NCBI RefSeq assembly: GCF_037042905.1
Contig: NC_087252.1
Coordinates: forward strand, 6,698,001 to 6,762,000
Length of the DNA: 64,000 nucleotides
Reading direction: 5' to 3'
Origin: Lytechinus pictus
Lineage: Eukaryota
Under the pieces are notes generated by a model that saw only the letters and a program-made list of their open reading frames with translations, ran no database searches and was not told the origin of the DNA. Each line of letters opens with the position of its first letter. Positions within the stretch are counted from its first letter, which is position 1. Made by a program: the position numbers and the translations under genes. Positions 6,485 to 61,019 of this stretch are shown one piece after another.

Positions 6485-6554
<70 letters not shown>

Positions 6555-12632: not shown

Positions 12633-12784
12633 CTGTAGAGAAAGAATGATCGGTCCATTTCATTTCGTAATTTCAACACATAAAATACCAAATAGCTTGT
12701 TTAAAGCAATTTCAAGGCATTCCATTGTAGAAATATAATCTCTCTCTCTCAATATCTTTATGTCTCTCTCCACACCCACCCCCC

Positions 12785-12883
12785 ACAGACAGACAGACAG
12801 ACAGACAGACACACACACACACACCCTCTCACACACACACACGCACCCACCCACCCACCCACACACACACACCCTCACACACC

Positions 12884-12967
<84 letters not shown>
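12785..12967. repeat. Compound microsatellite (CAGA)n(CA)n(TA)n
   Basis: Seen directly. Confidence 0.95.
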
Positions 12968-13902
<935 letters not shown>

Positions 13903-14979
13903 ATACTCAGAGCGACAGAATTTGATGATAACAAAGCAAGGTCTTGTAAATATATATGTAAAGTGTTAGCTAGTGTATTTACACTCTTGTTAAACCTAAA
14001 AAAGACAAGGACTACATAACGTATTACATCTTTCAACCAAATGATTAGAAAAGAATAGAGTCAAGGCAACAGAATAATAAATCCAATGTGTCGTGGAAAC
14101 CAGTTAACTTGAATTAAATAGAGCTGAAAATCTGTCATTAAATATCAATATATATGATCAGATATCTGACCGGTTTTTTTACGTATTGAGTACATGTATG
14201 AAGACAAATACACAGTGACTGAATTGAACTTACCAATCTTATCATTTTCTTTCTCTTTTTGATACGTACCTCAGTAAAAATTGGTACCTGAATGTTGGAA
14301 TCGAACGCCTGTGTATTACTGGCCTGTTTGTTAAGGTTAGGTTCGTTTGGTTCTGTGAGTGGTATTATATTGTGAACTATATAAAAGTGTTTTAGGGTGG
14401 GTATTCGGTATGAGATTTCTAAGAGGGTTTGAGGGGTGAGGGTGTGTGCGTATGCGTGTGGGTGTATGTGTGGGTGAGTGAGTGCGATGTTGCACTCGCT
14501 TGTCTTTAATAAAAACTTGGAGAAAGAGAGTTAGGTGAGTATGGGTGTATGCGAGCAGGTAAATGTGAGGCTGTGTGTCAGGGGTGTGGGTGTGAGATGT
14601 GCGAGTGTGAGTGTAAGGTGTGCGTGTGCGATTCTTTTTAGTTGAGGGTGTTCAGGTGGGAGGGTATTGAAATGCCAGGGTGGGTGTGTATGATTGGGTG
14701 GGCATATGAGAGTGCATGAACTGTGTGAGAATGTGTGAGAGAGAGGGTGCGAGGTAGTTCGTAAGATTATCTGAGTGGACGTGTGTGTGCGTTTGCGTAT
14801 TGTGCATGTGGAATGGAGTCGATGATGTGCCTATGCAAAATATTGGGTTCGGGTTAATGAACATTTGTATACAGTATATAGGTTGGGGCATTTCATTCAT
14901 ATAAAATGTTAGTGTTGGTGTTGCCTTGGAGTATGTCTTTGTATGTATGATCAACAAAATCTTTTTTCTTTCCACTTAC

Positions 14980-15010
14980 CTTTTATTATTCCTCTTTGAC
15001 TGATCAAACT
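14980..15010 (-). pseudogene. Paralog A 31-bp microexon: (E)FDQSKRNNK(R)
   Basis: tag / gtaagt boundaries; phase 1-2 links the TM and juxtamembrane exons; conserved at 50640-50670. Confidence 0.8.
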
Positions 15011-15849
15011 CTAGTGAAAAGACATTATAAAAGACGTGTTTCCATTAGAGTGATAGGGAAATGAAATGAAGCCTATGTAAACTGAGAGGGGAAATAAATT
15101 CACGATGGCAATCGTGGTCAAGTTCTTCAAAATGAACATACCTTCGCTCTTGACTTTCAGTTTTATCTTTCGATGATAAAAGCAATAACGATTTGACGAC
15201 TTATGCTTAATTACGGAAAAGTGCTTTTAACACGATTTTGGTATGAAGGGGAAATATGGTGTGATCTAGTACCAAAACTAGCTCAGATAAAAGATATAAC
15301 ACGAAAAAGGTATCAAAGGAAAGCAGTCATATTTTTGCTCATGCATGCCTCGTCTTTTATTATCTTCTCTGTCATTCTGTATTAATTTTTGTTAATGGAC
15401 GTAAGTGCATAACGTCATACTATGGCGGGGACGAAAAAAGTAGATCACCTTCTGAACAATAGGTCCACCGCTTGGATTTATAGGCTATTTGTGTTGCAAT
15501 AAAAAGAACTCATTGTTCTCACAAAGATTTATAGGGCATACACTATGTAAAATATGTTCAAATATGCAATTCATAATAACGGTGCAAATTAATATTTAAT
15601 TGTGTATTCGAATTTACTCCCACTGTGACTTTGTTATGTACCCTCAGGCCTTGACTGTGCAACGTTTTTGAGCTCATCCAATCAAGAAAATTTGTAAAAA
15701 TAATATTCTTTGAAATGTCACTTGGCAACTTTTACTTCTTCTACGTAGTCAGGAAACACATATGTAAAAATATCCATAATTACATTACTTCATCTTCTTT
15801 TGCATTCTCATTTTAGCTATTTAAATAAGAACTGATGAATAACAATCAC

Positions 15850-15984
15850 CCGGTTTAGTCCTCCTAAGAAGAATGAACTAAACAATGATGATGATGATGG
15901 AAGCTACTAGAAGGATGACCAAGACAGCAATCCCTATGTAGGCTCCAAAACTCAGACCAGACGGTGAGGATTCGATCGTGGTGC
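15850..15984 (-). pseudogene. Paralog A transmembrane exon: TTIESSPSGLSFGAYIGIAVLVILLVASIIIIIV*FILLRRTKP
   Basis: Hydrophobic helix followed by basic residues; TAG at 15878-15880 (CAG in paralog B). Confidence 0.88.
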
Positions 15985-16984
15985 CTAGGTATTAAATTTT
16001 ATGTATTATTATTATTATTATTATTATTCGGCAATTCACACAAAATATAACAATGTAAATATGAGTACACAAACAATTATAAATGCAAAATCTTACTGGC
16101 GGTCCTCTGAATGCATCAGTTGGCTGCCGGGGAAGAGGAAAGCAAACTTAATCACTGTAACCGTAATGGTCCCTCTTCCCGACCAACTGGTGCACATAGA
16201 AGACCTGTAAGATATAGCATGAAGGTAAATAAAATGTAAAATGTAAAACATTTCATAAACTAAACAACTAACAAAAACAAAGTACAAGGAGAACATAAAA
16301 CTAATATGTATGATGACACTAGGTCATGACACGATACTGAGCTTAAACATGAGGAATTAATTCTGGCTTAAAAACTATTGCATGAAATGTAAAGTAAGCA
16401 AACTGAAACGATGAAGTTTAAAACTGAGAAAAAAAGAAGAAAAGAAAAAAAAATATGAGAACATGTAGTAGCAAGCTGACAAGAATGTCTAAAATTATAT
16501 ATGTTGACCGGTATATAGAAGTTAAGAAAACATGGTAAAAGAAGTGAATAGGTACATAGGCTTAGTGGGCTTCAGGCGATTAAGGAAACTAGGAAAACAC
16601 ATTAAAGAACGAGTACTTCATATATTAAATTGTATACACAATTATAATAAAGAAGCTGCGATGGAACTGTCCAGAAGATGTTTAAATAAAGGCAGGAAAA
16701 AGAGGGGAAAAAGCAAAAGAAAAAAGTCTCCAGAGACATAAAAGCAGTATAATCAAAATTATAGTTTCGGCTCAAGAATGTCAAAAAAAAAGGAGACGAA
16801 TGAATGATTCCAAATCATGCCGTAATTATTAAATTAACCTATCGTAAATTAAACAAAGACTTCACAAGATAAAGTTAATATATGTTAATAAAGTTAATAA
16901 ATTTATTTTTGTTACCATGGTTTACGCAGTGAGCAGTGTGCGGAAAAAAACATTACACACTAATATTGATGCAACACATCTTAA

Positions 16985-17526
16985 AGGTCAAGTCCACCCC
17001 ATAAAATTATTGATTTGAATCGATAAAAATAAATCCAACAAACATAATGCTGCAAATTTCAACGAAATCGGATGTATAATAAGAAAGTTATGACATTTTA
17101 AAATTTCGCTCATTTTTCACAAAACAGTTGTCTGAATGCCCAACTCAGCGATATGCAAATATTTCAATTTTTACAGATTTGACAATTAGGATCAACTTGA
17201 CTCAACCATAAATGTTAAAATAATGGTAGCTCCATATGTTCAGGGAGGAATTAATCGTTGTTTCACATAACAATGAGGAGAACATTATCATTTTTCACAC
17301 TTGATATAGTGTAATACAAAAGAAATAGTGAGTGGGTGACGTCATCAGTCTGCCAATTTGCATACCAACCAGGATGTGAATATAAGTGTTTTGTGAAATT
17401 AAGCGAAACTTTAAAAGTCATAACTTTCCTATTTTACATCCGATGTTGATGAAATTTTCAGCGTTTTGCTTGTTGGATTTTTCTCTTTTTATTCAAATTA
17501 ACTTTTTGTTGGGATGGACTTGTCCT
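16985..17526. mobile_element. TTAA-flanked MITE; right-half copy at about 26000-26331
   Basis: ttaa-aggtcaagtccacccc ... ggatggacttgtcct-ttaa. Confidence 0.8.
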
Positions 17527-17624
17527 TTAAATGAAATGGTCGTTTGACACATTCCTCGCTCTTCTTTAATCACAGATCAACTATTGTTTTTCAAAGCCTT
17601 ACTTTAAAATTGGCACCAACTTAC

Positions 17625-17669
17625 CTCCTTCAACACATTGTTTACAGGATCGCGTTTCAATGCTCACTC
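17625..17669 (-). pseudogene. Probable paralog A stalk exon: (G)VSIETRSCKQCVEG
   Basis: ggcag acceptor, perfect gtaagt donor, phase 1-1, open frame; no paralog counterpart available to confirm it. Confidence 0.5.
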
Positions 17670-18384
17670 CTGCCACATGCAAACATATAACGATTCAATA
17701 AGTACAGGATGTATATAATTTTGATGTACAATGCATATAATATTGATTGTGCCGATTTGCTTGTCTTGTGACAGAAAGCTTTAAAAAACATTAAAAATAC
17801 ATACTAGTCTACACCCACATTGTGGCTCCATCCCACATTATGCACATGGTATATGCCTAGTCTAGTAAACACTTAGCCTAACTATCATTTTAACATCAAT
17901 TTCTGGTTAAGCTACACGCATTTCGCACAATATGGTCTTGGTCCAACACCACTAAGTCTGTATGATTAGATGAACTGCTTATGAATCTTCTTTTATTTGA
18001 AAACTTGCAAAATATTGCATACATGAAATGGGAATTAGTCCATCAGAGCATAAGAAGAAATTGATAATAGCCCTGTTGAATTCAGCCACGAGGTGACGAG
18101 GCTGTTCGCCGATCCGAGGCTATCTGCTAGGAGACCAATAACTAAATTTAGTTAAGGTACATGGTTGTGGTTGGAGTTTGATACGACGAACTTCCTGAAG
18201 TCGGATTTCTGTTAAAGCAGCAGTGATAGTAAGGTAATTTCAAACGTCATTTCAGTAGATAACTGACACTATACACAACCAACATTTATATTCATGTATA
18301 GAGGATTCGCTTAATAATAGAAATTATCAAAGCAGAAATTGTTCTTTGAAAAAATGAGGCTGTGTTAATGCTGAGTCTGAATAA

Positions 18385-21300
18385 TAGACAGGTCCAGATT
18401 TGAGAAAAGTAGACTGCCTTAGGCAAATCGTGTTAATGCTGAATTGAGAATTGTTTTAACATAATTTGAGGGCGCTGAGTCCAAATTTGCTGTTTGCCAA
18501 CCTTGATTTTGATGTTAAAATCCTCAAATTGGCAAAAACAATATGGCCGCCATTCTACACCCATTTTTACTCTATTCTGACCCCCAAAACTTGTAACAAA
18601 AATGTTTGTCAACGGTTTTTGGTACTATTTGATCTTAGAAATAACATACTAAAAATCCATCAAAATCCGTATCCGGGAAAGTGGTTATTTTTAAGATGGC
18701 GTCTAAGATGGCAGCCATTAACTGAAAATTAATATAACCGGCACTTTTCTACCCTAGACACCTTTTTCGGTGCATACATGTATTCAATGGTGGAGAGCAT
18801 AAAAGGAAAGAGTGAACATAAGCACTCCAGGGTACCTGAAAGTCCAAGATTGCGCAAAAATGGCTGCCATGGCCTAAAAATTCATAATTCATCTATTACG
18901 TATTTTATTTGGGTTTTATTCATTGGTGATGATTTCAAGGGTCAAGAAGTAAACCGGAACAAGTTACAAGGACAGTCAACGGTCCACTATGTCCAAAAAT
19001 CCAAGATGGCTTTCAAAATTGGTGTCTAAAATAGCTGTTGTTATCTAAAAACCCCCAAACCCGACATAGTTTGTTTAATATTTGCCTTGAGGATATGATG
19101 TTGGTGTCTAACCCATGGTTTAATGGGTCAAGAAATACGTTGGGACAAGTAACAAAGACAGTCTATGGTCCTCCATGTCCAAAAATCCAAGATGGCTGCA
19201 AAAATGGAGTATAAAATGTCTGTCGTTAATAACAAACCGACACAGTTTGTTTAATAACCGCCAGGAGAATATGATTTTTTAGTATAACGCATGGTTTAAA
19301 GGGTCAAGTATTAGATTGAGACAAGTTACAAGGACAGTAAGTGGTTCCAGTATGTCCAAAAATCCATGATGGCTTCCAAAATTGGAGTCTAAAATGGCTA
19401 TTGTGACCTAAAAACTGACATAGTTTGTTTAATATCCGCCTGGGGTACATGATTATGTTGTCTAACCCTTGGTTTAAATGGTCAAGTAATAAATTAGGAC
19501 AAGTTACAAGGACAGTCAGAGGTCCAGCATGTCCAAGAATAAAAAAAGACTTCCAAAATTGGAGTCTAAAATGGCTATTGTTACCTAAAAACTGACATAG
19601 TTTGTTTAATATCCGCCTGGGGTACATGATTATGTTGTCTAACCCTTGGTTTAAATGGTCAAGTAATACATTAGGATAAGTTACAAGGGCAATCAATGGT
19701 CCTGTATGTCTAAAAATCCAAGATGGATTCCAATTAAGGACTCTAAAATGGTTGCTGGTACTTAAAAATTGACATAATCTATATAGAATCCATCTGGGAT
19801 ATATGATGTTGGTGTCTACACTACGGTTTCAAGGGTTAAATAATACTTTTGGATTAGTTACGATGGTATGAAGCTGTCCATTTTGCCTATTATTCAAAGA
19901 TGGCTTTCAAAGTGAGTCTAAAAAGACTTCCATCGCCTAAACATAGTCATAATTAGGTGAACAAAATCTACAATATTGTGGTTTGAAGGCTAAAATAATA
20001 AATCGGGACAAATAAAAAGGATGGTCAGTTTCCTCTTCGTCGTAAAAAGTCCAATGCGACTTCTGAAATTGCGTAAAAAATGACTACTGTCCCCTAATCA
20101 TAAAACCATAGGATCGTCCTAAGCACAAAAATGACGTGTCTTGAAATACTTATCAGTGAATTATGGAAAATTTGTAGGTGAAAGTGTACCTTACTTTTTT
20201 AAAGTTAGTTTTTTATGTTTACCTATTGTCGCACCACCGTCTAATTGTGTCACTAATTCTTGTAAAACAGAGACGCCAAAATAGTGGCACTAGATGGGAT
20301 ACGAAGTATTGTCATTTTTGTAACAATGGTGGCCAACTTGAATGCAATTTTTGGAGCGTTCTTCATTTTTTTACAAGATGGACAACATTGTATCCCTGTA
20401 ATTCGTCTTCACCTATATCATTCGACCCTTGAAATCATGAGAAAGACACAAAAATGTTTCTAGGTAGATAGTATATGGACTTTGCAGCCAGATTTTTAAG
20501 AAATAGCAACTATTTTTTAAGCCATCATCATTTTTTTGCAAAACTGCACCACTGATAAACCTTGAAATTTTTCCAATGTAATTTTTCTCTTTGGAACCAT
20601 GATTTTATATATGTTTTATTTTATTCTCGGTAAACCCCAACGTTATTTCTACCAGGTGGATATTCTATGAATTTGGACCATTTCAAAGTTGCAACGTCCA
20701 TTATAGACGCCATTTTGGATGGTCATCTTGGATTCTCTGACACACTCACTGACCATCTTGTAAAAAACATGTCCTGTTTCATTATTTACCTTGAAAGTTT
20801 TTGATGATTTTGATTTTGATTTTGAGGATTTACTTTATTTTTTTAGTTGACGGTACAACGACTGCCGTTGTGGACGCAATGTTGGATTTGCAGGTAACCT
20901 TGGCGACCTTTTGTAACTATAACCTGTGTCAATAGACTTTGTTTAATCCTGACATGCCTAAGTTTCATGAAATAGACCTCTGTACCCTAAAAGTTATGAC
21001 ATTTCAAAAACTTAACTTCGGTTAAGATTTCATGTCGACTTCGCCACCGCCGTCGGAAAAGCGACGTCCATGTTTTGCTTCTGCTATGCAGGCGAGGGAA
21101 AAATGGCGGACACGTTAAAGATACCACAATATGAATATGCCAGCATCGCCTCAAAATTATCAAACATTTGGCCATATTATTTATCAAATCAGCAGCTGTG
21201 AATCATGGCAGCCATCTTGGAATTAAAGATGGCTGACGAATCAGTCGGACACATTATGTTTGCAACCCTGGGTATCAAAAATAACGCATAGATCCCAATT

Positions 21301-21531
21301 TCTGAAATATAATCACCCATAAAAATCGTTTAATATGGGAAACTGCATTAAAAATGCCGCCATTTTGTTTTTTGCCGATTTGAGGATGAAAACGTCGGAA
21401 TCAAGTTTGGCAAACAGCATTTTTGGATCCAGCACCCCTGAATTACCTTAAAACAATTGATAAATCAGCATTAACACAAAATGCCTAAAGCACTTTTTCT
21501 GAGCATATTTTTTCAATTCTGGACCTGACTA
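18385..21531. mobile_element. Academ-like non-autonomous DNA transposon with internal 178-bp tandem array
   Basis: TAG...CTA termini, about 170-bp imperfect TIRs, 3-bp TAA target duplication; repeat period 178 bp (19321 vs 19499). Confidence 0.75.
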
Positions 21532-22469
21532 TAAACAATAAACGAACTTTGGAATCTCCTCGGATTTGAAACATGAGAAAAAGCAAATACCTTACAGGGA
21601 TCAATGCACATTGAAACATTTATGTTTCTGAAATTCAATATCACCAAATTCGTACACATTTAACCATGTATTTCTATACGTTGAAAAGTCTTTGAGTAAA
21701 TCGTGAATGCTTTAAAAATTGAAAAATCCGCTTAAGATATTTCAATTAACTTAAAGAGGTTACTTCATAAATGCATTTATCAAAGTGATATCTTCACATA
21801 AAAGCTCTTGTTATTTCGCTTTCGATGTAGTTACATTTCCCCCCGTTTTAAGTGTATAAGTAGGTTGACTGTCTTTTCATTTAGTATTACATTTTAGAGA
21901 AAAATTATCTTGTTTCCAGAAGTGATTTTCTGATTCTGTATTAACATGGCTAAAAAGAAAAGTTATGTTCCCTCGCAACAATGCTTGTATTTCCATAATT
22001 TCATTGAAAAAACGTGTTTCCATCGGTTTCCAACAGAAGCTATCGCACGGTTAACAAAATATTTAATGCATGGCTGATCGTAAGCAAAACAGAGTGTCGA
22101 GAGAGTCTGAACGCTAGCCTTTAAAACCTCTTCATTTTATGAAATTAATGAAATTCAAGCCTTATTTCAAGTTACCAGAAATTTCCTTTTTTACCATTTT
22201 CTGTAATTGAATTATCAAATTAAAGAGCAGATGTTGAACTTTTTGAAAATGTGGTTGTCTTTTTGAAACCCAGATACGCCCGTCAAATGACTTTTTGGTA
22301 CCCCTTCTTCAAACTGTGTTTGCTCACGCATGCGTGAATGAAAGAGTGGATTCTAAGCTTTACAATGATAGGTCATTTGTCTGCTGTCTTTGTAATAAAG
22401 TTTTGATAAATCATCGATAAATGTGGATATCTTTTTTTTGTGGAACGCACTGTATATACCCCCTCTCTC

Positions 22470-22524
<55 letters not shown>

Positions 22525-23006
22525 ACTTATCTCCTAACATTTCATCATTAAAAACTCAGGCCTCATTTACAAACCTAATACATTAATCATTTTGGAATAT
22601 GAAATCTTAAGTAATTTCTAATAACAACCGAGGGACATAATACTCACGATTGAATAAGTATATATAAATAAAACAACTCATTTTATATAATAAAACAAAA
22701 TTTATTTGATGTTCGCAAATTTTCGACGATTACATATCGTCTATATCAAGTGAAAGAGACAAAGACTGTAAGTAACTTTTCTTGGAATAAAGCACGCAAG
22801 TGTAAACCTTCTTTTTATCAACATTGGTCCACCACGTGGACTTTCTACGGAATATAAAAAAGGGCTCCAAAAGAAACCTATCAAATATTACAAGGACACC
22901 ACGCAAATTTCACTATCACTCTCTAAAAAAATAGTTTTACGCAGGCCCGTTTCAGTTTTCTTTACTATATAAAAAAAAAAGAGATAGTTCAATCACAAAG
23001 ATTCTA

Positions 23007-23981
23007 CAGTGCGTATAAAAAAGTTTACACTTATAAAAAATCCTGTAAAATTATATATTTGTAATATCCTGACGATTTTTCCACATTTTAGCATTGGTAC
23101 AGATCCATTTAAGCAAATGACGATATAACTGTCGAAAAATATTTCCGCTTGTGTGAGCACCACTTACTTTTGAAAAGTTGGTGAAAAATGAATTGCGCAG
23201 AACTTTGAAATAGTTATGCGAATAAAAGTAGACCTTAATCATGAAGAACACTTGGAATTTAGTTAGTAAAATTGATTTGAAGATATCTTTTACCTTTTTA
23301 AACTTGTTTCCTTGCCCAAAACACTTCGAGGAGTGCATTGCGCCCCACCCCACTCCCCCACAGACTGAGGCCATCGTGACGATATTTGCTTTACACTGAC
23401 CTGTATCAACATGAAATGGCTTAGGCTTGATTTTCATTTTGTTAATCATTGTCAAGCTTGGGAAAAGTGTGGAGAAACAAGTATTGAATAAAAAATGAAA
23501 TGTAAACCCACTTTAAATGATAAAAACTTAGTGAAAAATGCTGGACATGTCTGTTATAAACTTTTGTTCATTATGTCCTCAGATCAAGCTGGCACAAAAA
23601 GAGTAAGGGTTGTGCTTACTAAGTGTTGAAATTTCGATTTGGGCAGAAAAATTGTTACCAAATGCTTGAATGTATCCGTTGTATTTCAATTGGCTAAAAG
23701 TGCTAGGGAAATTTATGAGAAATGCTTCGCAGGGTAAGTTTGATTTCGCCCTTTCCCCTTGAAACAGCTTGAAAACAAGCATTTCTGCGCAAACAGATTT
23801 CTGCGAGTTTTACAAAAATGGACAGTGCTCACTGAAGTGTAACATTCTGTCAAAACATTTACTTTCATTGGATAGATGAGACCCAAACCCAAGATTATAT
23901 GTGAAAAAATTACCCACATGTTATATATTTTTTAATTTCCAGGGCTTTTTCAAAGTGTAAACTTTTTTTTTATACGCACTG
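23007..23981. mobile_element. Tc1/mariner-type MITE
   Basis: ta-cagtgcgtataaaaaaagtttacactt ... aagtgtaaacttttttttttatacgcactg-ta. Confidence 0.85.
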
Positions 23982-24226
23982 TATAGCCCCTAAAATCAAT
24001 TAGTTTGATAAACCAAAGTCACAAAATGGTAAAAGAAAGACCTTCCCGGTTATGATATCACAAGTGTCCTTTACAGTGATTTTCTTGATCACAAAGAAAC
24101 AAAAGTAAATCAAAATAAAAAGAATGATTGGAAGTTCTGGAACAATCTTACAGCCACTTACAAATCAGCGGGGAATGTCCCAGTGAGTGGGATATAATGT
24201 GAACACCGTGTTCTATGTGTGACTGA

Positions 24227-24408
24227 CCGCCCTTTCACACGGTTAAAACAAATTGTAATTTGAATGATGATTCTAGTGGAAAAATAAGACTAATGACGAT
24301 TGTCTATCACGTGTGAAACCAAACTAGAACGTGATTAGAATCACGAACGCTAATCACAGTCACGATTACAATAGCAACCATCATTAAGTTTCTCGTGTGA
24401 AATGCCCT
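24227..24408. mobile_element. Short MITE-like repeat; related copies at about 52440-52590 (inverted) and 52622-52780
   Basis: Shared ccgccctttcacacgg...aatgatgatt..agtg..aaataag...cacgtgtgaaaccaaactagaac. Confidence 0.7.
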
Positions 24409-24728
24409 GAGTGAGATACAGGCACTCACTGAGTTCAGACTATCCCCCGTTTACCAGGACATCCGGGAGGGGGGGGGGGTGCGTATGGCTGTTTAACTGT
24501 CTCAGTCATTTAAATTTTGATGAACATTTCCTGTAGCTTGTTTGTGATTGAGCGGATCTCTAAACATGTCCGTCTTGACATGTGTAATAAACTGGGAAGT
24601 TTGGACGCCTTCTTTGAAAAGGTTGTTTCAGTTTAAAAAAGTAATATTTATAATAAAGTAAAGTAAGGGTTACGTACTAGCAAATAGGAAATGGTCTTCA
24701 AAGATTGTATACATGCATCCTTCCTTAC

Positions 24729-25052
24729 CTTTCACAGCCACTACTGTGGCAGGAGGTGTGGATGATGCTGTTGTAGTAGTACATTGATACCGTCCTTCCT
24801 CTTCAAGTTGAATAGCATTGATTCCTAAAATTGACGTATGAATATCAGTACCTCTTCGTAGCACTATGTTACTGTATCTTGCTTAAGGTGCACTGTCTAT
24901 ATCCCCAAAGTATAACAGCTGGGATGAAACATCATCTGATGTGAAAGTCCATTGAAATGTCGGGGTGCTCTCTGAAGAAGTACAGGTCAATGATACATTA
25001 TCTCCAATTCGAACAACAATTGATGGAGGTGGGATCACTTGACCATCTATGT
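24729..25052 (-). pseudogene. Paralog A V-type Ig domain exon: IDGQVIPPPSIVVRIGDNVSLTC...FQWTF...SAP*ARYS...EEEGRYQC...VVAVK
   Basis: B-strand LTC, C-strand W and F-strand GxYxC with 66 residues between the Cys; phase 1-1; in-frame TAA at 24883-24885. Confidence 0.88.
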
Positions 25053-27847
25053 CTGCAGAATTAGAAAATCATTCTTTGAACTTGTACACTATACTTAAAC
25101 CCATGTATTTCCCGATTTTCCCCATCATAATCATCTATTCTTTCTCCCTCTGTCCATCTCTGTCCCTCTTCCTTAAAAAAATTATTCCCTTACCAACGAC
25201 TGCAAACTTATAATATTCTCGCAACGGACTTTTACATGGAAATTTTCTTTATCAAAGACCTAACGTGACTTTGTTAGTATAGTAACACCCTCTAGAAAAA
25301 TGAATAGAAAAACATATATAAATTAAGTAAAATCAATCACTAATAAGATATTTCAAATTACATAAAACCAAAAGTAATAATATTGGTAATGACCAAAAAT
25401 AATGGTAATCATGACAAACAAATAAAGAATTAATTAACGCATACATTGAATGATTTATTTATCCGTTCATTAATACATCATACTGTATATATAAATATAC
25501 ATGAATAAAGGATTAAATGAATATGATATATACCAACAAATATCATCAAACACCTTACGTTTTGTCCAGCCAAAACCAAAAACCATCTTGTCCAAAATGA
25601 TTTTTCCACAATGTTTTTTCCACCCGTTTAAGTAATACCCCCAAAATAATAAATGAATAAATATATTAAAACAAAGATCAAGCAAAATATGGCTGTCAAT
25701 TTCATATTTCGAACATTTAAATCTCAATGTCTGTATGTTTAATAAAAAATAAATGAAGATTATCTCTTAGCATAGAAGATGAGAAGGGTCATAATTATGT
25801 TAAATACACTAAATGAAAAAAACAAACAAAAATACCGTAAACAAGCAGAAGGGCTGTATAAACTCGGAAAGCCGTGAAAGGTGCCATCACTATCAAATTA
25901 TATATGGGTTTCCAATGTCTTTGGACCTTTTCGCATCCCTTGTCGACGATTCGTGCTTGAAAAAAAAACATGCATAAGTATAATAAACAGAAAAGTGAAA
26001 ACAAAGATTAATTCCTCCCTGAAAATGTAGAATTAGCATTATGTTAATATTGTATGGTCAGTCAAGTTAGTCCTTATTGTGAAATCTGTAAAAAAATGAA
26101 ATATTGTATAATTCAAACAATAAAAAACAAAATAAATAGTGAGTGATGGACATCATCGACTGTCTCATTTGCATGTCACTGAGATGTGCAAATAACTGTT
26201 TTGTGAAAAAAGGCGAAACTTTAAAATGTCATAACTTTCTTATTTTACATCCAATTTTGATGAAATTTTTAGCGTTTTGCTCGTTGGATTTATTCAAATC
26301 ATCATTTTTCTGGGGTAGACTTGACCTTTAAGGAATTGCTAAAAAATATGCATTAGCGAACCTTTTGCTTGTGCGTTTAAATATTTTACTTTTTTCAAGC
26401 TCCATCAGAACAGCTTGACCGTTAACTTGATCGGGGCGCTTGCATTTTTTAATCATGTTTTTGTATTTGAGAACCCCGAGATGTAAGAAGCCGACATGTA
26501 TATTCATTCCCCGAGTAAGTGCAAACTGAATGCCAACTACAGATATATAAGTTAATTAATCAGGGGCGTACGCAGAAGAGGGGGGGGGGGGAACAGGGGC
26601 TCAAACCCTCCCCCATATTTTTTTTCTTTTTTTAAACTCATTTTACGTAGAGATTCAGAACCCCCTAACCATTTTTTTGGGGGGGTATGGAAGGACCACA
26701 TTTTCTTCTGAAAACCTTGTCACATTTTGTTGGTACGAAACGACCGCCAAATTTGGCTGAAACCCTTTTTTTTTGCTTGTCATATTTCTATTCATGTTTC
26801 AAAAATCCAGGGTATGCCCCTGTTATTAATTAGAAACAAGTTAAAAGAATAGTTTGAAATCACGTCGAGTTCTGCCTCTGTTCTGTGAGTCGTGTCCACA
26901 ACAGCTGCGTGACGTTGTTATTGGGGCAATTCCATAAAATTATCAACCTTTTTGTACATCCGACTCCCATTCTCTTTAAGTTTTACTTCACTTCATAAAC
27001 CGATCAATTCATGGTTCTTTAAGAACACTACAGACTTTCAAAAGAACAAGAAATCAGAGACAGAGTTCCCACATATGGAATTGCACATTGTTCAAATAGC
27101 TTCTTTCTGAAGCCTGAAGGCAAGAAAATTGTTTAAGTGCAAGCAAAGGCTTATGCATACGAAATAAAGCAATTGCTAAGACATGATCTTTTTCTTGTCT
27201 CGCAATTGCTTGTGTTTAAGGAAATTTCTACTTTTTATGCATCTGACCCAATGTTATTAAAACTACAAAAAATTGCCATAATTGATACGCAAATATAACA
27301 CAATTTTGAATGTCCAAAATTGATTATTACAGACCCTACTCCTCATTCGACGAACACGAACATCATGTCGTAATATTTAGACACTCAATAAATTTGTCAA
27401 AAAACTTTTTTTTATATCCATAATCACTTCTTTTACTGTGATAAAAATAATAAATTTTTAAGAAGCTTAAATAATGAAGGATATAATACATTTATTACTG
27501 CTTACTGATGAACGGGAAAGACTTGATATCCATATGCTTAAAAGGGAAATCTCGTATGAACCAACAATTATAAAGAAATCAGTACGCTGAATATTTTTTT
27601 TATAGAGTACCCTACTTCCTCCAGGAGTGAGGTGACAATTCATCGGAAATGTATTACTATTTAAATGCATATACGGTGAAATACAATACGAAATTCGGGT
27701 ATTCTCAATATCATTTGCTTATATAAGGAAACTGTTAAATTATGGCAATCGTCTTCCGAGAAACACGTGTTTCTTACTGTTCCTAAATTATCTTATGACG
27801 ATGTCTAGCATACGTACCTTAGTGCTGAACATGCTAAAACTCCTTAC

Positions 27848-44524: not shown

Positions 44525-44584
44525 TCACATATCACTGGTAGACGCATACAACTGCTCATCCAAGTCATTAAGTGACAGGTAGCT
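44525..44584 (-). CDS. Paralog B last coding exon: SYLSLNDLDEQLYASTSDM*
   Basis: ttttcag acceptor, phase 0, Tyr-containing RTK-like tail, TGA at 44525-44527. Confidence 0.75.
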   Translation of the reverse strand, partial: SYLSLNDLDEQLYASTSDM

Positions 44585-47500
44585 CTGAAAATTGAACGAT
44601 ACAGACAATTAAAGTCCGTTATCAATCAGTCAATAGCAATGTGATGTAAATAGATATTATTCAGCATTTTTCATCAAGAAAATTCATAATCAAATGTTTT
44701 AATACTTCAATATTTACTGAAGTTACAACGTTATTACAGATACAAATTATCAAAAAAAAAATTAACAAACAAAATTAACAAATCTACGGGGGATAGGGCA
44801 ATCTGAGGCCAACCGGGTACCCAAATTAAATCTCGGCTCTTGAATTTAGGGAGCAAGTTTGTCTTTTCTCCTTGCATGATAAAACACATAATATTATAAT
44901 TCAAAGTGAGAGTTGGGAAAAGGCCTCGCATGGCTTAATTATTCTAACTCTACTGCATAGTATAGTATACAGGTAAAACAATACACACTAAGAAATAAAG
45001 GTTCAAAATTGAACCCAGAAAGGTTGATGCAAAATCAGCACCCTATGGGTTCAAAAATTGAACCCCTGATTTGGGGTTCAAAAATTAAACCCTGCGATTG
45101 GGGTTAATTTTTGCACCCTGCGGGTTCAAAACTGCACCCATAGGGGTTCAATTTAAAATTTAGGGTGCAGTTTTGAACTCGCAGGGTGCAAGAATGAACC
45201 CCAAACGCAGGGTTCAATTTTTGAACCCCAACTCAGGGGTTAAATTTTTGAACGCATAGGTTGCTGATTTTGCATCAACCTTTCGGGGTTCAATTTTGAA
45301 CCTTTATTTCTTAGTGTGTAGATTTCAATCGTATATTGCCCCATGGTTGATAGACCTGATAAAAGCAAAGTCAATCAGTATCACAGCAGAAGATCAAATT
45401 GTGTGGAATCAAAATTTAAGCTTACATGAGTTTTTTCTAGAATCATTTCCAAATCTTTCAGGATCCGGTCAAAGTTTGTCCTATTTGTAGGGTCCTTCTC
45501 CCAACATCCAGTCATAACCGAATACCTGTGAAATAAGATAACGGTTCTTTATTCACAATGCAATATCAGTCCATGTTATCATTTGTGAGCCACAAATAGA
45601 GATTTACACCATCCTTAAATTCATGTGATATTTAAACAGTCTTTGATCATATTATAACACTTCTTTTTTTATTACACCACTTTATGCATGGACGTACATA
45701 GGTCCATACGTTATGGATTGCTCCTGTAAAGGGAACGAATTGACGTTGTTCTTATAACACCGTAATTATCAAAGGGGAAGGTCACCCTGAAGAAAGGTTT
45801 GTTGTAAAAAAAATACCAGGAAATAATTACAAAATATTGGTAAAAATCTGATGAAAATCTATCAAAGATTAAGAATGTTATTGAAATTACACTTCTTGTG
45901 CACAGTGACGAGGGCGTGGCATCTGGTAACCATTAGCAACCTCCGTCTGAACCGCGCCGAATGTTATATTTGGGTATGGTCTTGCACCTATCAGAATAAA
46001 GAAAATGATAATGCTGGTGATCTGAAAATATTACTTTATACTGTATGTTTTGTAATATTCCAGTTCACAACTCTTCTCATCGTCAATCAAAACTTTGAGC
46101 GTTCCTGTGTATTCTTCATTTTAATAACTGAATTACATCAATTCAACATGTTTGACATCACCCGGCGTTTCAATTCAAGGAGAATTATGATTTCATCAAC
46201 TCCCAATGAAAACAAATAGAGATATTATTAGTGTCGTTTTTAATATCTCCGTCGCTTTTTCATTGGGTTTTTAAGTTGAAGCAGGAAAATAAGGGTATTC
46301 GTGTAGTAGTCATGTGAGTCAAATAATTGTTGTTGCTTTGGTTTCATTTAGCCTATCAGCACACTCATTTATCATTTAAGTCATCATTGTACTGTGACTA
46401 TTATCATCTTCAAAACAAACCATTATAATCATTATTATACAACATATCTATGGATATGTAAGATTTAATAACAGGGCATCACACATTTACAAACATTGAT
46501 TCATGCACCTCATTTCTTACCCAGTGTTACAATTTCCCATAAGACGATACCAAAAGACCAGATGTCTCCTTCTGTTGTTTGGTCACCCGTTACCATGGTT
46601 TCTGGTGAACTCCATCTGGTAGGTTTCTATGACGGTGTACAAATTATGAAGAATCGTGTTAAAGCAATAATTCGATCGACTGCCAGTTGCAATCTGTAGT
46701 TAAGGTATACAATGTCAAATATGTCTTAATAATGATGTAAAACCAGCAATCTGGTATATTTGCAGGCTGAGGAATAAAACCAAAAGTCTCAATTGTTCAG
46801 ATATCAACCTTGTTACATTAGGTATCAGATATTTGCGTTTATCTTCAGAAAAAGGAGAAGAGCTCTAAATAAAGCTACAAAATAACATTCCTTATTATTT
46901 GGCATAAACCGTCACACTTACAGCTACGTCACCAAAGAACGATGAAGAAAGTCCATAGTCTGATATCTTGCATTGTTTTCTTTCTCCTAGCAACACGTTG
47001 TGAGCGCAGAGAGCTCCATGGATAATCTGAATAAAAAGAAAAAATATCACAACTAAATCTATGAGTCATTGGGAGTATTTTTTTTATTTTGGATCTTTTT
47101 TAATTGTTTATTGAGAATAAACAAGTCTCTTGGGTTACCCTTCCACTGTTTGAAACTAATAGGATTCTGAACTGATAACATAAACTTGAAAGTTGATTAT
47201 ATTTCTAATCCTAACTAACTTCCTTTCCTCGTCTTATTCCTTATTTCGTTAAGGGATTTCATAATAAATTGTTAAGTTACCTTCTTAGATAAATTACCTT
47301 CTTAGATGCTAGAAACTGCATCCCTTTAGCAACCTGCCAAGCCAAGTTAAGTAGGGTACCCTCCTCAATACGAACACCATTTGGTTTGATATTGCTGTAC
47401 GTGGGTTGAGATTGCACCCCTGAAGTCTGTAGATGGGTGAGGAGTGTACCCCCTGAGATGAACTCATACAGAATACTACCTATAAATTGATGGTATATAA

Positions 47501-50500
47501 ACGATCGTTGGAGAAAGGTAAACTCCGTGACTTTATATTTAATTAACAACCTCCTGTAGTGTGTTGCAGGAGAGGAATGAAGTATAATGTCCTCTGCTTC
47601 GTATTTCTTGAACCATTAACACTAAATCAATTCAAGGGGTTTCTGCGATTGTAAAATGAGGGGAAAGACACCCTTTTCCCTCACCCCCTCTCTCTCTTTC
47701 TTACACAAAAACAGACTAACCCATCAGCTCAGACACGCACACACATATTTTTTTTTTCCTTTTTTTGTTTGTTAATTCCTTCATGTCTTCTATCATTTTA
47801 TTCACTTTTTCTATATATTCGATTCGATTCTATAGCATCTTTTTATTTTATTTTTTTACTATCACTCATGATTTATCATTATTATTATTTTTTATCTTAT
47901 TTATAAAATTCATTATTACTTTGAATGACACTTCCCAAGCTGGAATTTGCCATTTTCTTTCAAATTGCGGACTCCCCGGGACTTACGTGTATAAACACAA
48001 TGCAAAAAAGTTACAGTACTTACGACCTAAGTATATTAATTGTTTAGATGATACATTTCACTGTCGTTTAAAGAGAACCTCTTGTATTTAGATTTATGAT
48101 ATTATTGAAGAGGCTTTACGTACCTTGCTCTTTACAATATCCTAGACATCTTACAATATTTGGTTGATCCGATAGCTTGTAAAGTACCTTGATGGCTTGA
48201 AGTACGTGAAGTGTTTTTGTCACGCAATCTAAGATAGTAGTTCATAAAAATAATCACATTATCATTCACTGAAAAAAAAAAAAATTTTCAAGGATTATTT
48301 TCCCATGACCAATTTCTGGAGAAGTAAAAAGATAATAATAATGAACACTTTTTGAAATAGGAGCATGTACCTCATTTGCGTACCCCTCCCTTCATCCTTC
48401 CCATGTAAGGCATGTTAATTGCATTCAAGAGAACCCGAATCCACTAGTCGTATGAAAACAATTCAACCAATTTCTAGCGAATCACTTTCCAATCTACATT
48501 ATCTACATGTCCTGAATGGCATCCTACTATTATTCGTTAATTAGGACATTCATTGTTTTATTGTGATGACAAATCAATCATAACCTTGAAAAGATCGAAT
48601 TTCTGTCATATCCATTAAAAATGCTTGAATGAATGAATTACACACTATCACCTGGTATTTGCCTGATAGCAACGTCAAGATGGTTTTGTTTTGAGCGCAG
48701 GTCTCCCTTCCATACCTCGCCGAAGTCACCCCGTCCAATCGAACCGAGTCTGGTAAAGAACGTCACGTTTTCATGGGCAATGACGAAGGAGTGGGATGAA
48801 TCAAGTTTTAACGCTGTGTATGCTATATTTGTTTGAAGAAAAATTAAAGAAATTGAGTTAGAACACTTACTGCCATAATCAAAACATCAAACCCATCTGA
48901 ACTGAAAAAAGTAATTATGATGAATGTAGATTTATTGTGCTCTGGTATATAGAATGCAATGTTTATGCAATACATTGGAGTTTAATCAATGCAAAATCGA
49001 ACAGTTTCTCTTCAGCTCTATATATCTGGAATGCCTTTCCATCTGTCCATTGAGGATTCGAACAATTGAATCGCTTGAAACATTTAAAAGGTATAAAGCC
49101 CTTTCTGTTTTCTTCGTACTTTTGTTACTGTAATATATGTTACTGTAATTTGATCTGACCATTTTGATACCTCCACACAGGCAAACATATTTTTTCCTGT
49201 AACCCCTCCCTCACCCTTCGCCTCGTAATAGTTTACTAGATAGATGGTGCACAATAAATGCTGTGTTTATTATTATTAGCATTCACACACAAGAAAATAC
49301 AAGAGAAACCGTTTATGTGTATGTTAGCTATTTAGGTTTTACAATTCGGAATAAGCATTATATTCATCAGTAAAAGTGATGATTTTGAATTATGAGGATG
49401 TTGCAAAGCTACGGCACTATGTCGCAGATGTAAAATATGTTATCGAAAACTATGGGCGTATATCTGATATGAAATATGTTCCGTGATATGTATAATTATA
49501 AAGAAAAGAAAATTAGAAACATTATTCTTGAATAATTTTTCACCTCGATCTCCGCTTTGAATCATCTCATAAGCCACGTTGTCATTCCCCTCCTGATGTG
49601 TATTTACTCCATCTCTGTACAAGGAAAGTATTATTTTGAAATAATAAAATAATTTTTTAAATAATTAATTGTTTTACATCGATAAGGATAGACTCCAAGA
49701 TGATTTCATTTCATAGTTTGATAGTATAAAGTAAGATGTAGCTTACTTACGCCTACTCAAAGGGATTTCATGGCACTAACATCATTCCTGCGCAATCAGT
49801 GAAACATTGGATTGATCAATAGATGTTAAAAATAGCGATTATGTGTCATAGAGTGTTGTTATGAATGGGATTATAAAAAATAACTTGAAACTACAAAAAT
49901 TACAATGTGATGAATACGTAGTACATTTTCCAAATAGAATGATTAGGCAAGAGTAGAAACAAGCAAACTCAATAATACATAAGTAGCTAGTGAACCAAAA
50001 TCTGAAATTTTATCACATACTAAATATCATTAGATGATCAGATATTTGAAATGGGATTTATAAATATTTACTGAAATGAAATTATCCTTTTTTTTCTTTA
50101 TGTTGTCAATTATATGCATGCACCTTGTAAGAATTGGTGCTCGAAAGTTGCAATTGAAAGCATTTGTATTAATACTGAAAGGTATGTTGAGGCGAAGGGT
50201 ATTTATTTAAAAATGTGTGCTTTGAATGGTTTGGTATTTGAGTATATTATATAAATATGAGTAAGGGCGGGGATGGATATTTGGTATGTATCTTCCCAGT
50301 TTCTGAGAAATTGGTGGTGTGCGAGTGTTGAGTGTTGGTGTTGGAGCCTGTGGGTGTATGTGTGATAAGGTAGCTATGTGTGTGTGTGCATGCGTGTGAA
50401 AATTTGTGTACATGAACGCTTGTAAATGTGAGAAAGAGGGTGCGATGGTGTTTGTGAGATTATAAAAGGGTGTAGATGGGTGTGCGTGTGCATATTTACA

Positions 50501-51414
50501 TGTGGGAAGAGTTGAGGACGTGCCTGTGTAAAACAGTTTGTGGTAATGAGGATTTGTATACAGTATAATGCGAGAGGGGATGTTGGATTGATGGGTGTAT
50601 TTGGGCGTGTGATTAATACCCCTTCCCCCTTCCACTTACCTTTTGTCATTCTTCTTTGACTTATCGAACTCTAATAAATAAAATAGTAAATGTAAATAGA
50701 CAATATTTGCCAAAGAGTTATAAGGAAATGAAATGAAGCCACGTGTAAACTGAGATGTGCAAAAGATCAATTACTCGAGGTTAAGATGTTAAAGATAAAT
50801 AACCTTCACTATTAATTTTCAGTTTCATTTTCCATAAAATAAATATAAATTACGGAAGAGAGGTTTTTCACCATCTGTTGGTATCGAGAGGAAATCTGGT
50901 AAGAACTAGTAACCAACCCACCTTATATACATGATAATACACCATACAGGTATCAGAGGAGAAAAAACATGTTTGCTTTGTCTTTTATGATACTCTCCAT
51001 ATTCTTTATTGTTCATGGGCGTAAAATACATGACGTCATACGTTTCAAGTTGGACGGGGATTAAACAGTAGTTCACTCCCCCTTCTAAACAAAAGGTCTA
51101 CCGCTTGGATTAACGGCATTGTAATTGTTGCAATAAAATATTTATTATTCATCATAATGTTCATAGGGCATATACTCTTGTAAAAAAGGGGTCAACTGTG
51201 CTCCTTTACACATACTGAGAGCACCTTTGAAGATACACCTTTGAGGTTGTCCCCTTTCTTGAAGGTGTAAATCTACGTTTGCATTCTCATTTTAAATATT
51301 TTAATGGAACTGGTGAATAATAATCACCTGGAATACTTTTTCTCTCTGGAAGTATGAGCTGTACAATGTTGATGATGATTGAAGCTAATAGAAGGATGGC
51401 TAAGACAACTATTC
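44525..51414 (-). CDS. Receptor tyrosine pseudokinase paralog B (TM to C-terminus; 11 exons in window; 5' exons not found)
   Basis: Phase-compatible open exons: 51328-51414, 50640-50670, 49544-49614, 48652-48822, 48124-48228, 47298-47479, 46922-47026, 46521-46626, 45891-45987, 45426-45525, 44525-44584. Confidence 0.88.
44984..45318. mobile_element. Near-perfect palindromic MITE, TA TSD
   Basis: ta-cacactaagaaataaagg ... cctttatttcttagtgtg-ta; the whole 335 bp folds back. Confidence 0.9.
45426..45525 (-). CDS. Paralog B kinase subdomain XI exon: YSVMTGCWEKDPTNRTNFDRILKDLEMILEKTH
   Basis: MxxCWxxDPxxRxxF tyrosine kinase motif; AG/GT boundaries. Confidence 0.92.
45891..45987 (-). CDS. Paralog B kinase subdomain X exon: (G)ARPYPNITFGAVQTEVANGYQMPRPRHCAQE
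   Basis: GxxPY...GYxMxxPxxC motif; phase 1-2. Confidence 0.92.
46521..46626 (-). CDS. Paralog B kinase subdomain VIII-IX exon: [35 protein letters not shown]
   Basis: PxRWxxPE and [11 protein letters not shown], diagnostic of the tyrosine kinase group. Confidence 0.95.
46922..47026 (-). CDS. Paralog B catalytic-loop exon: IIHGALCAHNVLLGERKQCKISDYGLSSSFFGDVA
   Basis: Aligns to IHRDLAARNVL...KISDFGL; phase 0-0. Confidence 0.93.
47298..47479 (-). CDS. Paralog B hinge to alphaE exon: GSILYEFISGGTLLTHLQTSG...LLNLAWQVAKGMQFLASKK
   Basis: QVAKGMxFL motif; ORF track 47277-47549. Confidence 0.93.
48124..48228 (-). CDS. Paralog B alphaC-beta4 exon: CVTKTLHVLQAIKVLYKLSDQPNIVRCLGYCKEQ
   Basis: PNIVxxLG motif; phase 1-1. 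Confidence 0.92.
48652..48822 (-). CDS. Paralog B Gly-loop/beta3 exon: YTALKLDSSH...IGRGDFGEVWKGDLRSKQNHLDVAIRQIP
   Basis: IGxGxFGEV motif; phase 1-1. Confidence 0.93.
49544..49614 (-). CDS. Paralog B juxtamembrane exon: DGVNTHQEGNDNVAYEMIQSGDR
   Basis: Homologous to 12562-12632, same length and phase. Confidence 0.85.
50640..50670 (-). CDS. Paralog B 31-bp microexon: (E)FDKSKKNDK(R)
   Basis: Homologous to 14980-15010; gtaagt donor. Confidence 0.8.
51328..51414 (-). CDS. Paralog B transmembrane exon: (G)IVVLAILLLASIIINIVQLILPERKSIP
   Basis: Homologous to 15850-15984. 5' boundary uncertain: strong phase-1 acceptor at 51415-51416, alternative AG at about 51467. Confidence 0.75.
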
Positions 51415-56674: not shown

Positions 56675-57679
56675 TAAGATGGAAAGGGGAATTCCAGAAA
56701 AAAACCGACCGATCTTCGAAAGAGGAACTTTTGAAATAATTTTTGGACTCGACACATCGTCTGGAATCCAGGAAAAATAATAATAAACGGACTTTGGACC
56801 TTATCATGTCTTAAATACCAAAACAAATTCGCATAATGTCGGCAAAAAAAAATTTAATCGACATTGATATTTGCATGTCATAATGTTACAATATAAATTG
56901 CCGTGTTGAATTTATCGTTGGGATGACAGAGAAAAGGGGATATTCGGGTAATCATGTACGTTTGAACCTGAATTTGGGGCATTTTTATGCTTAGTGGTTT
57001 AATACAGACATGCCAGATTTGCATGTCTATCCATGTTTTCATTATATCGTTGTAAAGAGAAAATACTTGTATGTAACAAATTCGAAAAGTGCAAAATGAC
57101 TGCTTCATAAAATATTCAGATAAGACATCTTGCTATAAATATGTCAATATGTGTAGTTCACATTCCATCCCGCCAAATATCAATTCATAAACAGTTTATA
57201 TTGGTTTATGGTCCCCCTTCTAATGATTTGATTTAGTTGGCAAACAAATTAAATACACAAAACTATAAATGAAATTAATAAAATGTCGAAAATAATTACA
57301 TACCAATTATCAAAGGGGGTATAGCTGAACCTGTCCATGAAAACAAAAGTCAATCGAGAGAATCAATAAATAATTTTTTTGCAGGTGTTTCTGCATTTAC
57401 TGAAAATTCAATATATGAAACACAGTAATCATAATGCATACATGTACAAAGAAATAAAAAATTAAATGAAAGAATTACAAATTGTGACGATTACATAATA
57501 CAATAATAACTTATATAGACATACATATAAAACAAAGTGCAGTGGCCAGCTATTGTAAGCAAAATCTTTGAGATAATAGCAGCGTGTTCTGGTCGTCATC
57601 ATTCCTGATGACTATCCGAACACGCTGGTCGAAACGTCGTTAACTAGCTTGGTTCTGTTGTAATAAATATTTGCTGAAT

Positions 57680-60020: not shown

Positions 60021-61019
60021 TAAAGGGCTCCCGTGACAAGCTTGGTCAATTTGCTCCCTCGCTTTCGAGTTCCTTTTAAGAAATCTACGGGTCTTGCCGT
60101 CGCAAGAAAAATAATCTTTCTGCGTAACGACATTAACAAATAATAACCAAGGGCAAACTTTTCACGACTAAATCATAATGTGTTCAAATAATTTTTTTTT
60201 CCATTTTCATGTTAAGCGGAGTTGCTGGGGGTGATGGAATACCATATGCGGCAACCCTCGAAATTATCACGGCATGCTCAACTGGTGAAATTTGACCCAA
60301 AGCACCTCAACTATGAAGTGAAAAAAACTTTGCTTGTTATTTTCTTTTTCAAAACCAGCACATTTCCAACAAAAAACACACTTCCAATGCCAATGGCTTG
60401 CCTTGATATCCTTTTGAAGTACAAATGTATATCAATTTAATTCTTTTCATTTCTATGCATGCATAATATCAAGGAGCTTCAAGCACATCCTTGATAATAC
60501 AAATAAATATAAACTAGATGAAAACTTATTTAATATGCAATATCGCATGAAACTGCCATATATCTAATCTCTTTCCGACGATAAATAGAAATTGACTATT
60601 TGTGCAATATATTGAAAAGTGTGGCATGTGATTTACAATCTTCGATATAGTATGAATTGATTGAAATATAGAGAACAGGAGTACATACCAGTTGTGGGAG
60701 GAAGGAGGGTTGGTTCTGTCCATTGTATTATAAAGAGCAAGATATGAAGGAGATAGTTCATAATATATAAATACTGCACAATTTTCATCTATAAGTAAAA
60801 ATGAATGTGAGATTTTAATTTTTGACCAGAACTTGGCACACTCCACAGACCTCCCATTTGAAGCCCATTATAAATTTTGGGCTTCATTGATCATTGGCAG
60901 AGGCTGAGACGTGGTTTGTTGAATGCTATAATCACAATTCATGTTTTTTTTTTATCATTCATATCCCCCCCCCCATTTTCCATGTTCATATTGCATTTCG
61001 TTCATATTGCATTCCGTGT

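Follow-up and report, generated by a model that had tools for sequence, protein, structure and literature searches.

A candidate sea urchin family of receptor tyrosine pseudokinases and its copy at a tandem locus of Lytechinus pictus

Most of what is known about receptor tyrosine pseudokinases concerns eight proteins of humans, whose motif patterns are collected in Table 2 of PMC13259870. In that table, PTK7, ROR and RYK keep the beta3 Lys, the alphaC Glu and the catalytic Asp and have an altered Gly loop and DFG. According to PMC4718504, a kinase domain is a pseudokinase by sequence if it has lost the beta3 Lys, the catalytic Asp or the DFG Asp. Here we describe gene B, encoded in a 64,000-nucleotide (nt) stretch of the Lytechinus pictus genome (hereafter, the window; RefSeq assembly GCF_037042905.1, contig NC_087252.1, forward-strand positions 6,698,001 to 6,762,000), and the sea urchin family to which it belongs. 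Gene B and its broken tandem paralogue, gene A, lie on the minus strand, and all coordinates are positions in the window. A preliminary description made from the letters alone had proposed that gene B is a receptor tyrosine pseudokinase of a lineage-specific, independently inactivated family, with a putative role as scaffold or co-receptor.

The kinase domain of gene B matches Pfam PF07714 (E 6e-66) and has lost three catalytic residues. The beta3 Lys is Arg (VAIR), the alphaC Glu is Ala, and the catalytic Asp is Ala (HGALCAHN). The comparison set was the 111 HRD-type domains among 178 aligned kinase domains. Among these, the Arg61 column holds Lys in 110 and the Ala76 column holds Glu in 107; the catalytic column holds Asp in 111/111, by selection of the set. 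The activation segment has 22 residues and no Tyr, in comparison with 26-33 residues in 110/111 HRD-type kinases and a Tyr in 95/111. The Gly loop GRGDFG, the catalytic-loop Asn and the Asp of DYG are retained. Thus, the Lys and catalytic Asp of the sequence definition are lost, the DFG Asp is kept, and we regard the domain as almost certainly inactive in catalysis, judging from these residues. That the Gly loop, the Asn and the DYG Asp are still in place hints that it may bind metal-ATP. An alignment-based model gave a confident kinase fold (predicted local distance difference test, pLDDT, 80.6), and was used in place of a single-sequence fold (pLDDT 33). Its closest solved structure is Tie2, which is also the nearest by sequence of the single-domain relatives in the PDB (Tie2, RET and FGFR). 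A protein atlas search with the kinase domain returned generic kinase clusters only.

Gene B was assembled as 13 exons from 60715 to 44525, with AG/GT ends throughout and a frame that is open up to the stop. The final 315 residues of the model are those of L. pictus RefSeq protein XP_063959134.1 (P0002), which is labelled "Tie-1-like". The preliminary description had placed VAIR, HGALCAHN, DYG, a short Tyr-less activation loop, an intact Gly loop and an open frame within 44525..48822; all recur there in the model and the alignment, but the gene reaches far above 48822. Its upper exons are two 27-nt stalk mini-exons, one at 60689..60715 (phase 1-1, supported by AG/GT ends and frame, and outside RNA coverage) and one at 57304..57330 directly before the membrane helix (matching P0010 and nearly identical to the overhanging end that an RNA contig leaves at 51415), and a transmembrane exon at 51328..51414, which was found by tblastn with family members. 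The best 19-residue hydropathy, 3.14, spans the transmembrane exon and the exon preceding it. A 31-nt exon at 50640..50670 links the membrane helix to the kinase in one reading frame, which gives the open model a single in-frame helix; skipping this exon shifts the frame. There follow a juxtamembrane exon with the tyrosine motif YEMI (49544..49614) and an exon with YTAL, GRGDFG and VAIR (48652..48822). The remaining exons encode alphaC (LQAIKVL, 48124..48228), the hinge, a kinase insert with a conserved Tyr and alphaE (47298..47479), HGALCAHN and DYG (46922..47026), the P+1 loop, SPE and alphaF (46521..46626), alphaG (45891..45987), alphaH-alphaI (45426..45525), and two tail tyrosines (YLSL ... 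YAST) with the stop (44525..44584). A phase-1 acceptor at 49612 was dropped, as the 31-nt exon fits and RNA joints indicate 49614. The kinase introns have phases 1,1,0,0,1,2, and in PMC4898815 the strings of VEGFR and PDGFR end in 0012. By a comparison of phase strings alone, gene B appears to fit the Tie/FGFR/RET/VEGFR grouping.

A one-exon search yielded 36 clusters of related sequences from L. pictus, L. variegatus and Strongylocentrotus purpuratus, and wider searches added members in Diadema antillarum and D. setosum. Because isoforms are counted and one species is represented by two assemblies, the resulting 51 distinct family sequences are not independent. The lesions recur across them: beta3 is Arg in 50/51 (one gap), the catalytic loop begins with HG in 51/51, and the alphaC Glu occurs in none. 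The catalytic Asp column (position 165) holds Thr in 21, Ala in 16, Asn in 12 and Ser in 2 sequences, and never Asp. Conservation elsewhere is high, with G37 and G42 of the Gly loop in 50/51 each, G39 in 46/51, and Asn170 and Asp183 in 50/51 each. The preliminary description had named retention of K/E/HRD by orthologues and paralogues as part of one outcome that would undo its proposal; that combination occurs in 0/51 family sequences, and the loss of Lys and Asp, shared across the family, agrees with a family of receptor tyrosine pseudokinases by sequence.

Family ectodomains consist of three Ig domains, one Ig domain, Ig plus FN3, Sushi, or none, and the subfamilies comprise an ectodomain-less type (P0099, P0233 and P0234), a one-Ig type (P0080), a Sushi type (P0035) and the expanded three-Ig type. 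The ectodomain-less proteins have 421-426 residues, seem to be single-copy, and are kept in Diadema, Strongylocentrotus and Lytechinus.

In a 50-row kinase tree, which contains no named Tie sequence, 13/13 family rows form a single clade (support 100/99) inside a group of Cad96Ca-like invertebrate receptor tyrosine kinases (RTKs; 95/93), separate from the FGFR, Ret, PDGFR/VEGFR and CSK rows. A quick tree of 98 rows, from which proteins with several kinase domains and 36 redundant rows of the family were excluded, is concordant (Shimodaira-Hasegawa-like approximate likelihood-ratio test, 99). The tree analysis called for in the preliminary description thus gives one lineage-restricted clade, found, among the sequences searched, only in Lytechinus, Strongylocentrotus and Diadema. 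A profile search that scored 8000 candidates gave eight family matches at 370-533 bits and the next match at 289, and starfish, brittle-star, crinoid and hemichordate matches retain HRD; both results concern the best 120 of 167 matches, and therefore more distant members could be missed. Other kinases of the HG type (Clavelina P0209; P0106, P0068 and P0206; a Daphnia HGD kinase) lie outside the family clade. Because Diadema members, P0238 and P0240 among them, fall within the clade, inactivation probably predates the divergence of Diadema from Lytechinus some 200 million years ago. Our best reading is that catalysis was lost once, from a Cad96Ca-like RTK, before Diadema separated from the line of Lytechinus and Strongylocentrotus.

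Gene B carries a juxtamembrane tyrosine pair, YEMI-x6-YTAL, which spans the 49544/48822 junction and fits the immunoreceptor tyrosine-based activation motif (ITAM) consensus Yxx[I/L]x(6-9)Yxx[L/I], as given in an Alr preprint (bioRxiv 10.1101/2022.03.04.482883). This consensus is present in 20/45 family juxtamembrane segments, versus 1/62 active relatives, and nearly all positive segments belong to the intact camarodont three-Ig type. Diadema copies have both tyrosines, with 9-10 residues between the halves and Ile/Leu ends. In some copies, the first tyrosine fits the consensus of the corresponding inhibitory motif (ITIM), with little enrichment (18/45 family segments vs 11/62 active relatives). 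The two tail tyrosines are kept in 43/51 family sequences (seven gaps). Active kinases offer a parallel: in a group of Ig-RTKs (P0089 from amphioxus, P0091, P0092 and P0096), the tails match the ITAM consensus exactly, and two of the four proteins carry a tyrosine pair in the juxtamembrane region as well.

Full-length paralogues encode a signal sequence, three Ig domains, a stalk, a single membrane helix, the paired-tyrosine motif, the dead kinase and a two-tyrosine tail. The outer and inner halves of these proteins appear to have different histories. Among ten proteins, ectodomains of different types within Lytechinus are 38-42% identical, and their kinase domains are 88-92% identical; within one ectodomain type, identity rises to 79-84% in the ectodomain and 94-97% in the kinase. 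Lytechinus ectodomains are 34-39% identical to those of Diadema, barely below the between-type values. In the ectodomain tree, two types cross genera, each uniting Lytechinus with Strongylocentrotus (96/99 and 99/99), and in the kinase tree the Lytechinus copies group together (95/99). P0010 was left out of both trees, its ectodomain piece being shorter than 60 residues. Approximately unbiased (AU) tests on 12 proteins rejected the swapped topologies both ways (p 6e-6 and 9e-7), the second group having been defined after the ectodomain tree was known. The pattern would survive even if some models of the tandem genes were chimeric, because each domain set exhibits it alone. The simplest reading is that old ectodomain lineages carry tails that were homogenised within each genus, presumably by conversion or shuffling. 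Look-alikes of the ectodomain include clusters of fasciclin-3-like proteins, ALCAM, CD22 and Hydractinia Alr2, which serve as a lead only. The preliminary description had noted neither the varied ectodomains, nor the uniform tails, nor the ITAM-consensus pair.

These observations are consistent with a role that we consider probable, namely that the family of gene B comprises noncatalytic docking receptors that depend on phosphorylation. An Ig ectodomain would bind a surface ligand and cluster the receptor. Another kinase, of the Src family or an active relative, would then phosphorylate the juxtamembrane and tail tyrosines in trans; we propose trans-phosphorylation because the kinase domain should not phosphorylate itself and its activation loop has no Tyr. 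SH2 proteins would dock on the phosphorylated tyrosines, with the dead kinase domain as a rigid scaffold, perhaps nucleotide-bound. Many ectodomain types could thereby feed one standardised signalling tail, homogenised within the genus. Old, diverse Ig ectodomains on standardised ITAM-consensus tails point to a candidate receptor repertoire. More tentatively, these receptors might serve recognition of an immune or self/non-self kind. It is similarly speculative that the locus belongs to a multigene array of recognition receptors, in which anciently diversified V-type Ig ectodomains share a homogenised tail of ITAM and dead tyrosine kinase, an RTK having turned immunoreceptor, and in which copies that lack the membrane helix or the ectodomain, gene B among them, would serve as decoys or adaptors. 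Sea urchins are already known for expanded innate receptors, and L. pictus is a species that lends itself well to laboratory work. The family was kept across distant sea urchin lineages, then amplified, and has been hidden under misleading automatic names.

Several points weigh against docking receptors of this kind, some for the family and some for copy B. Nucleotide binding is not predictable from sequence, as PMC4718504 states. Isoforms, and a species with two assemblies, are counted among the 45 juxtamembrane rows just as among the 51 kinase rows. Three older subfamilies lack the ITAM consensus and the tyrosine pair. A comparable tail pair occurs in 34/111 active relatives, so the tyrosine pairs are partly ancestral. 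For copy B, a family ectodomain profile that detects Ig1 of gene A at E 6e-19 found no Ig exon above the transmembrane exon in 51.4-64 kb (12.6 kb), and RefSeq models of gene B in both Lytechinus species (P0002, P0037 and P0039) have no membrane helix. Four sequencing runs, of which two are only guessed to be RNA, were compared with 43000-51520, and they contain joints at all ten gene B introns in that interval. Most of their records are 95-99% alike to the window, and those at least 99% alike number only 3/141, 9/154, 19/56 and 2/20; raw-read depth on gene B exons is about 0-2 per direction. Because so few records are at least 99% alike, the joints document splicing in close relatives, not expression of gene B itself. 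Moreover, the 31-nt exon is present in contig set X1 and skipped in X2. An assignment of the X2 contig to gene B or its exact L. variegatus orthologue was rejected, as 6/9 listed amino-acid changes match P0037 and 3 do not (comparison based on 25 listed differences).

A first alternative accepts the family as described and takes copy B as a 5'-truncated duplicate, which would encode either a membrane protein without an ectodomain, on a plan like that of STYK1, or, if the 31-nt exon is skipped, a soluble decoy or adaptor. We give it somewhat less than an even chance. In addition to the missing Ig exon, the helix-free models and the X2 contig, it is favoured by the skip frame, which is open in the window, and by the existence of the ectodomain-less subfamily. 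Furthermore, the L. variegatus orthologue model P0039 begins within the 60689..60715 exon, although in a different frame, and directly upstream of this mini-exon, from about 60788, lies an in-frame hydrophobic run of 24 codons with an ATG at its start, which could act as a signal peptide if that exon is the first. However, 1/19 other acceptors also has an ATG-started hydrophobic run, though of just 10 codons. P0010, the closest relative at the N-terminus of gene B (76/85 identical), has an Ig exon above the same mini-exon, and the window stops 3.3 kb above that mini-exon in gene B. The X1 contigs contain the 31-nt exon. Most likely, copy B is membrane-anchored when the 31-nt exon is used, and its ectodomain lies beyond the window or is lost. 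Thus, the word "receptor" in the preliminary description suits the family, whose paralogues have Ig domains, and suits copy B in part: a transmembrane exon is present, and an Ig exon is absent from the window.

A second alternative, somewhat less likely, is that the family, in the manner of PTK7, ROR, RYK and HER3, supplies co-receptors for development or adhesion that work as allosteric partners of active RTKs, with ectodomain diversity reflecting relaxed drift rather than recognition. All characterised receptor tyrosine pseudokinases act in this way, according to PMC13259870, the best ectodomain look-alikes are adhesion molecules (fasciclin-3-like and ALCAM), and the three older subfamilies are low-copy and have no ITAM consensus. 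On the other hand, a tandem array with pseudogenes, cross-genus ectodomain types and homogenised tails is unlike single-copy Ryk and Ptk7 (PMC4898815), and we retain docking receptors as the preferred explanation.

It is improbable that gene B is a decaying duplicate, or that one of the known pseudokinases (STYK1/NOK, PTK7, RYK or ROR) is its orthologue. In favour of orthology is STYK1, which, by PMC4898815, has three introns in common with the Tie/FGFR/RET/VEGFR group and almost no ectodomain, like one sea urchin subfamily; our trees contain no STYK1 sequence. However, its lesion pattern in Table 2 of PMC13259870 is the reverse, and the names of these four do not occur in the best 60 PDB matches by sequence, the best 50 fold ranks or the best 120 of 167 profile matches. 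As for decay, gene A and gene B differ with a dN/dS (ratio of nonsynonymous to synonymous substitution rates) of 0.16 over 150 kinase codons (Fisher p 2e-9), which rules out the neutral decay that the preliminary description had raised as a counter-case. Least probable is an atypical active kinase in which Arg replaces Lys and another residue is the catalytic base. In its favour are the kept Gly loop, Asn170 and Asp183, the invariant beta3 Arg, and the Asn that 12/51 sequences have at position 165, a residue shared with weakly active HER3. Against it, all three catalytic residues are missing at once, position 165 is free to be Ala, Thr, Ser or Asn, and the tyrosine-kinase Arg two or four residues past the base is also gone (HGALCAHN).

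Gene A occupies 218..25887 on the minus strand and continues below the start of the window. We located its signal exon (at 25887), an Ig1 exon (25052-24729), a transmembrane exon (15984-15850), further exons at 15010-14980, 12632-12562, 12072-11905 and 3945-3841, and an exon that reaches alphaE (399-218); Ig2 and Ig3 exons were not found in the window, and its catalytic loop falls outside. The Ig1, transmembrane and alphaE exons each contain an in-frame stop, and two of the three are TAG where gene B has CAG. Another L. pictus model of gene A (P0045) has Gln at the alphaE stop, which therefore may be polymorphic. The preliminary description had read LQAIKVL in both paralogues; gene A actually has LQAIEVL, and the alphaC Ala is common to both.

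A young Ty3/Gypsy-type long terminal repeat (LTR) retrotransposon lies between the two genes (28009-37537). It has a gag-pol-like open reading frame of 1687 codons (36637-31574, minus strand), a second of 269 codons with zinc-finger-like motifs (31436-30627), and terminal repeats that are 98.7-99.6% identical, the left one interrupted by roughly 1.2 kb of other DNA. The intron above the membrane exon of gene B contains nested long inverted repeats that resemble foldback elements (53386-56677; the arms reach about 1 kb and are 91-97% complementary). A gene A intron holds a 6-kb palindromic block of AT-rich minisatellites (4468-10582; 5800-7500 vs 9463-7776, 84%). Tandem minisatellite arrays occupy 18929-19923 (units of about 180 bases) and 61681-62941 (units of about 100-300 bases), and fragments at 5069-5797 and 57996-58493 resemble, in their reading, remnants of long interspersed nuclear element reverse transcriptases.

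No description of the family was found in the literature searched, although the 2006 sea urchin kinome paper and its companion RTK survey (Lapraz et al.), or their supplements, may already contain early members, classed as orphan or inactive RTKs. The family is not found in the accessible portions of PMC8662651, PMC13519141, PMC4883820 and PMC10855541. Two "SpTie-like" genes, possible members of the family, are elevated in coelomocytes and axial organ (PMC6494969). RefSeq labels such as "Tie-1-like", "Cad96Ca-like", "FGFR-like" and "angiopoietin-1 receptor-like" imply active kinases and scatter this one family; gene B departs from the Tie, FGFR, RET or PDGFR/VEGFR orthology that such names imply, as it has lost the active-site motifs and, in the tree, which has no named Tie row, does not group with the FGFR, Ret or PDGFR/VEGFR rows.

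The lesion pattern of the family matches none of the eight human receptor pseudokinases in Table 2 of PMC13259870, which suggests an independent origin. EphA10 and EphB6 are also single-pass proteins that lack the beta3 Lys and catalytic Asp, keep GxGxxG and signal through phosphorylation sites and docking motifs, but they have an Eph ectodomain, have lost the DFG Asp that the sea urchin family keeps, and are single genes rather than a tandem array. HER3 (ErbB3), which is phosphorylated in trans, also has neither the alphaC Glu nor the catalytic Asp, while its Gly loop, the Asn of its catalytic loop and its DFG Asp are intact; it differs in keeping the beta3 Lys, in its EGFR-family ectodomain and in belonging to an unrelated branch. 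Gene B and its family thus depart from all three in both ectodomain type and motif pattern. STYK1, absent from the known examples in the preliminary description, is a pseudokinase whose introns link it to the same RTK group as gene B, and with its very small ectodomain it is like the P0099 subfamily and perhaps copy B. P0099, P0233 and P0234 even equal it in size and plan, but they bear the lesions of the sea urchin family; STYK1 keeps the Lys (VILK) and catalytic Asp, with DFG changed to GLG (PMC13259870, Table 2), a motif pattern that gene B does not share. Gene B also differs in motifs from PTK7, ROR and RYK, and family ectodomains are unlike theirs (seven Ig domains, Ig-CRD-Kringle and the WIF domain typical of RYK, respectively). 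By motif, ectodomain and best solved relatives, then, gene B is not simply the PTK7 or RYK orthologue that the preliminary description had weighed. Its proposal of independent inactivation agrees with motifs, ectodomains and match lists, on which independence rests because the trees contain no STYK1, PTK7, ROR or RYK sequences.

The nearest active relatives are Cad96Ca/Stitcher-like RTKs by tree, many of them with a paired-tyrosine C-terminal tail, and Tie2 by PDB sequence and fold. Both differ from the family in keeping VAVK, the alphaC Glu, HRD, DFG and a Tyr-bearing activation loop, and in their ectodomains. A parallel in architecture is Hydractinia Alr, whose Alr2 cluster ranks fifth among the ectodomain look-alikes (score 0.92, again a lead only). 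According to the Alr preprint cited above, these are clustered single-pass proteins with a V-set and two Ig domains, low identity between members and ITAM/ITIM tails. They differ in having no kinase domain and no Cys-Trp-Cys pin in domain 1. The resemblance is one of architecture alone. Moreover, Alr tails are more divergent than Alr ectodomains, the reverse of the sea urchin family.

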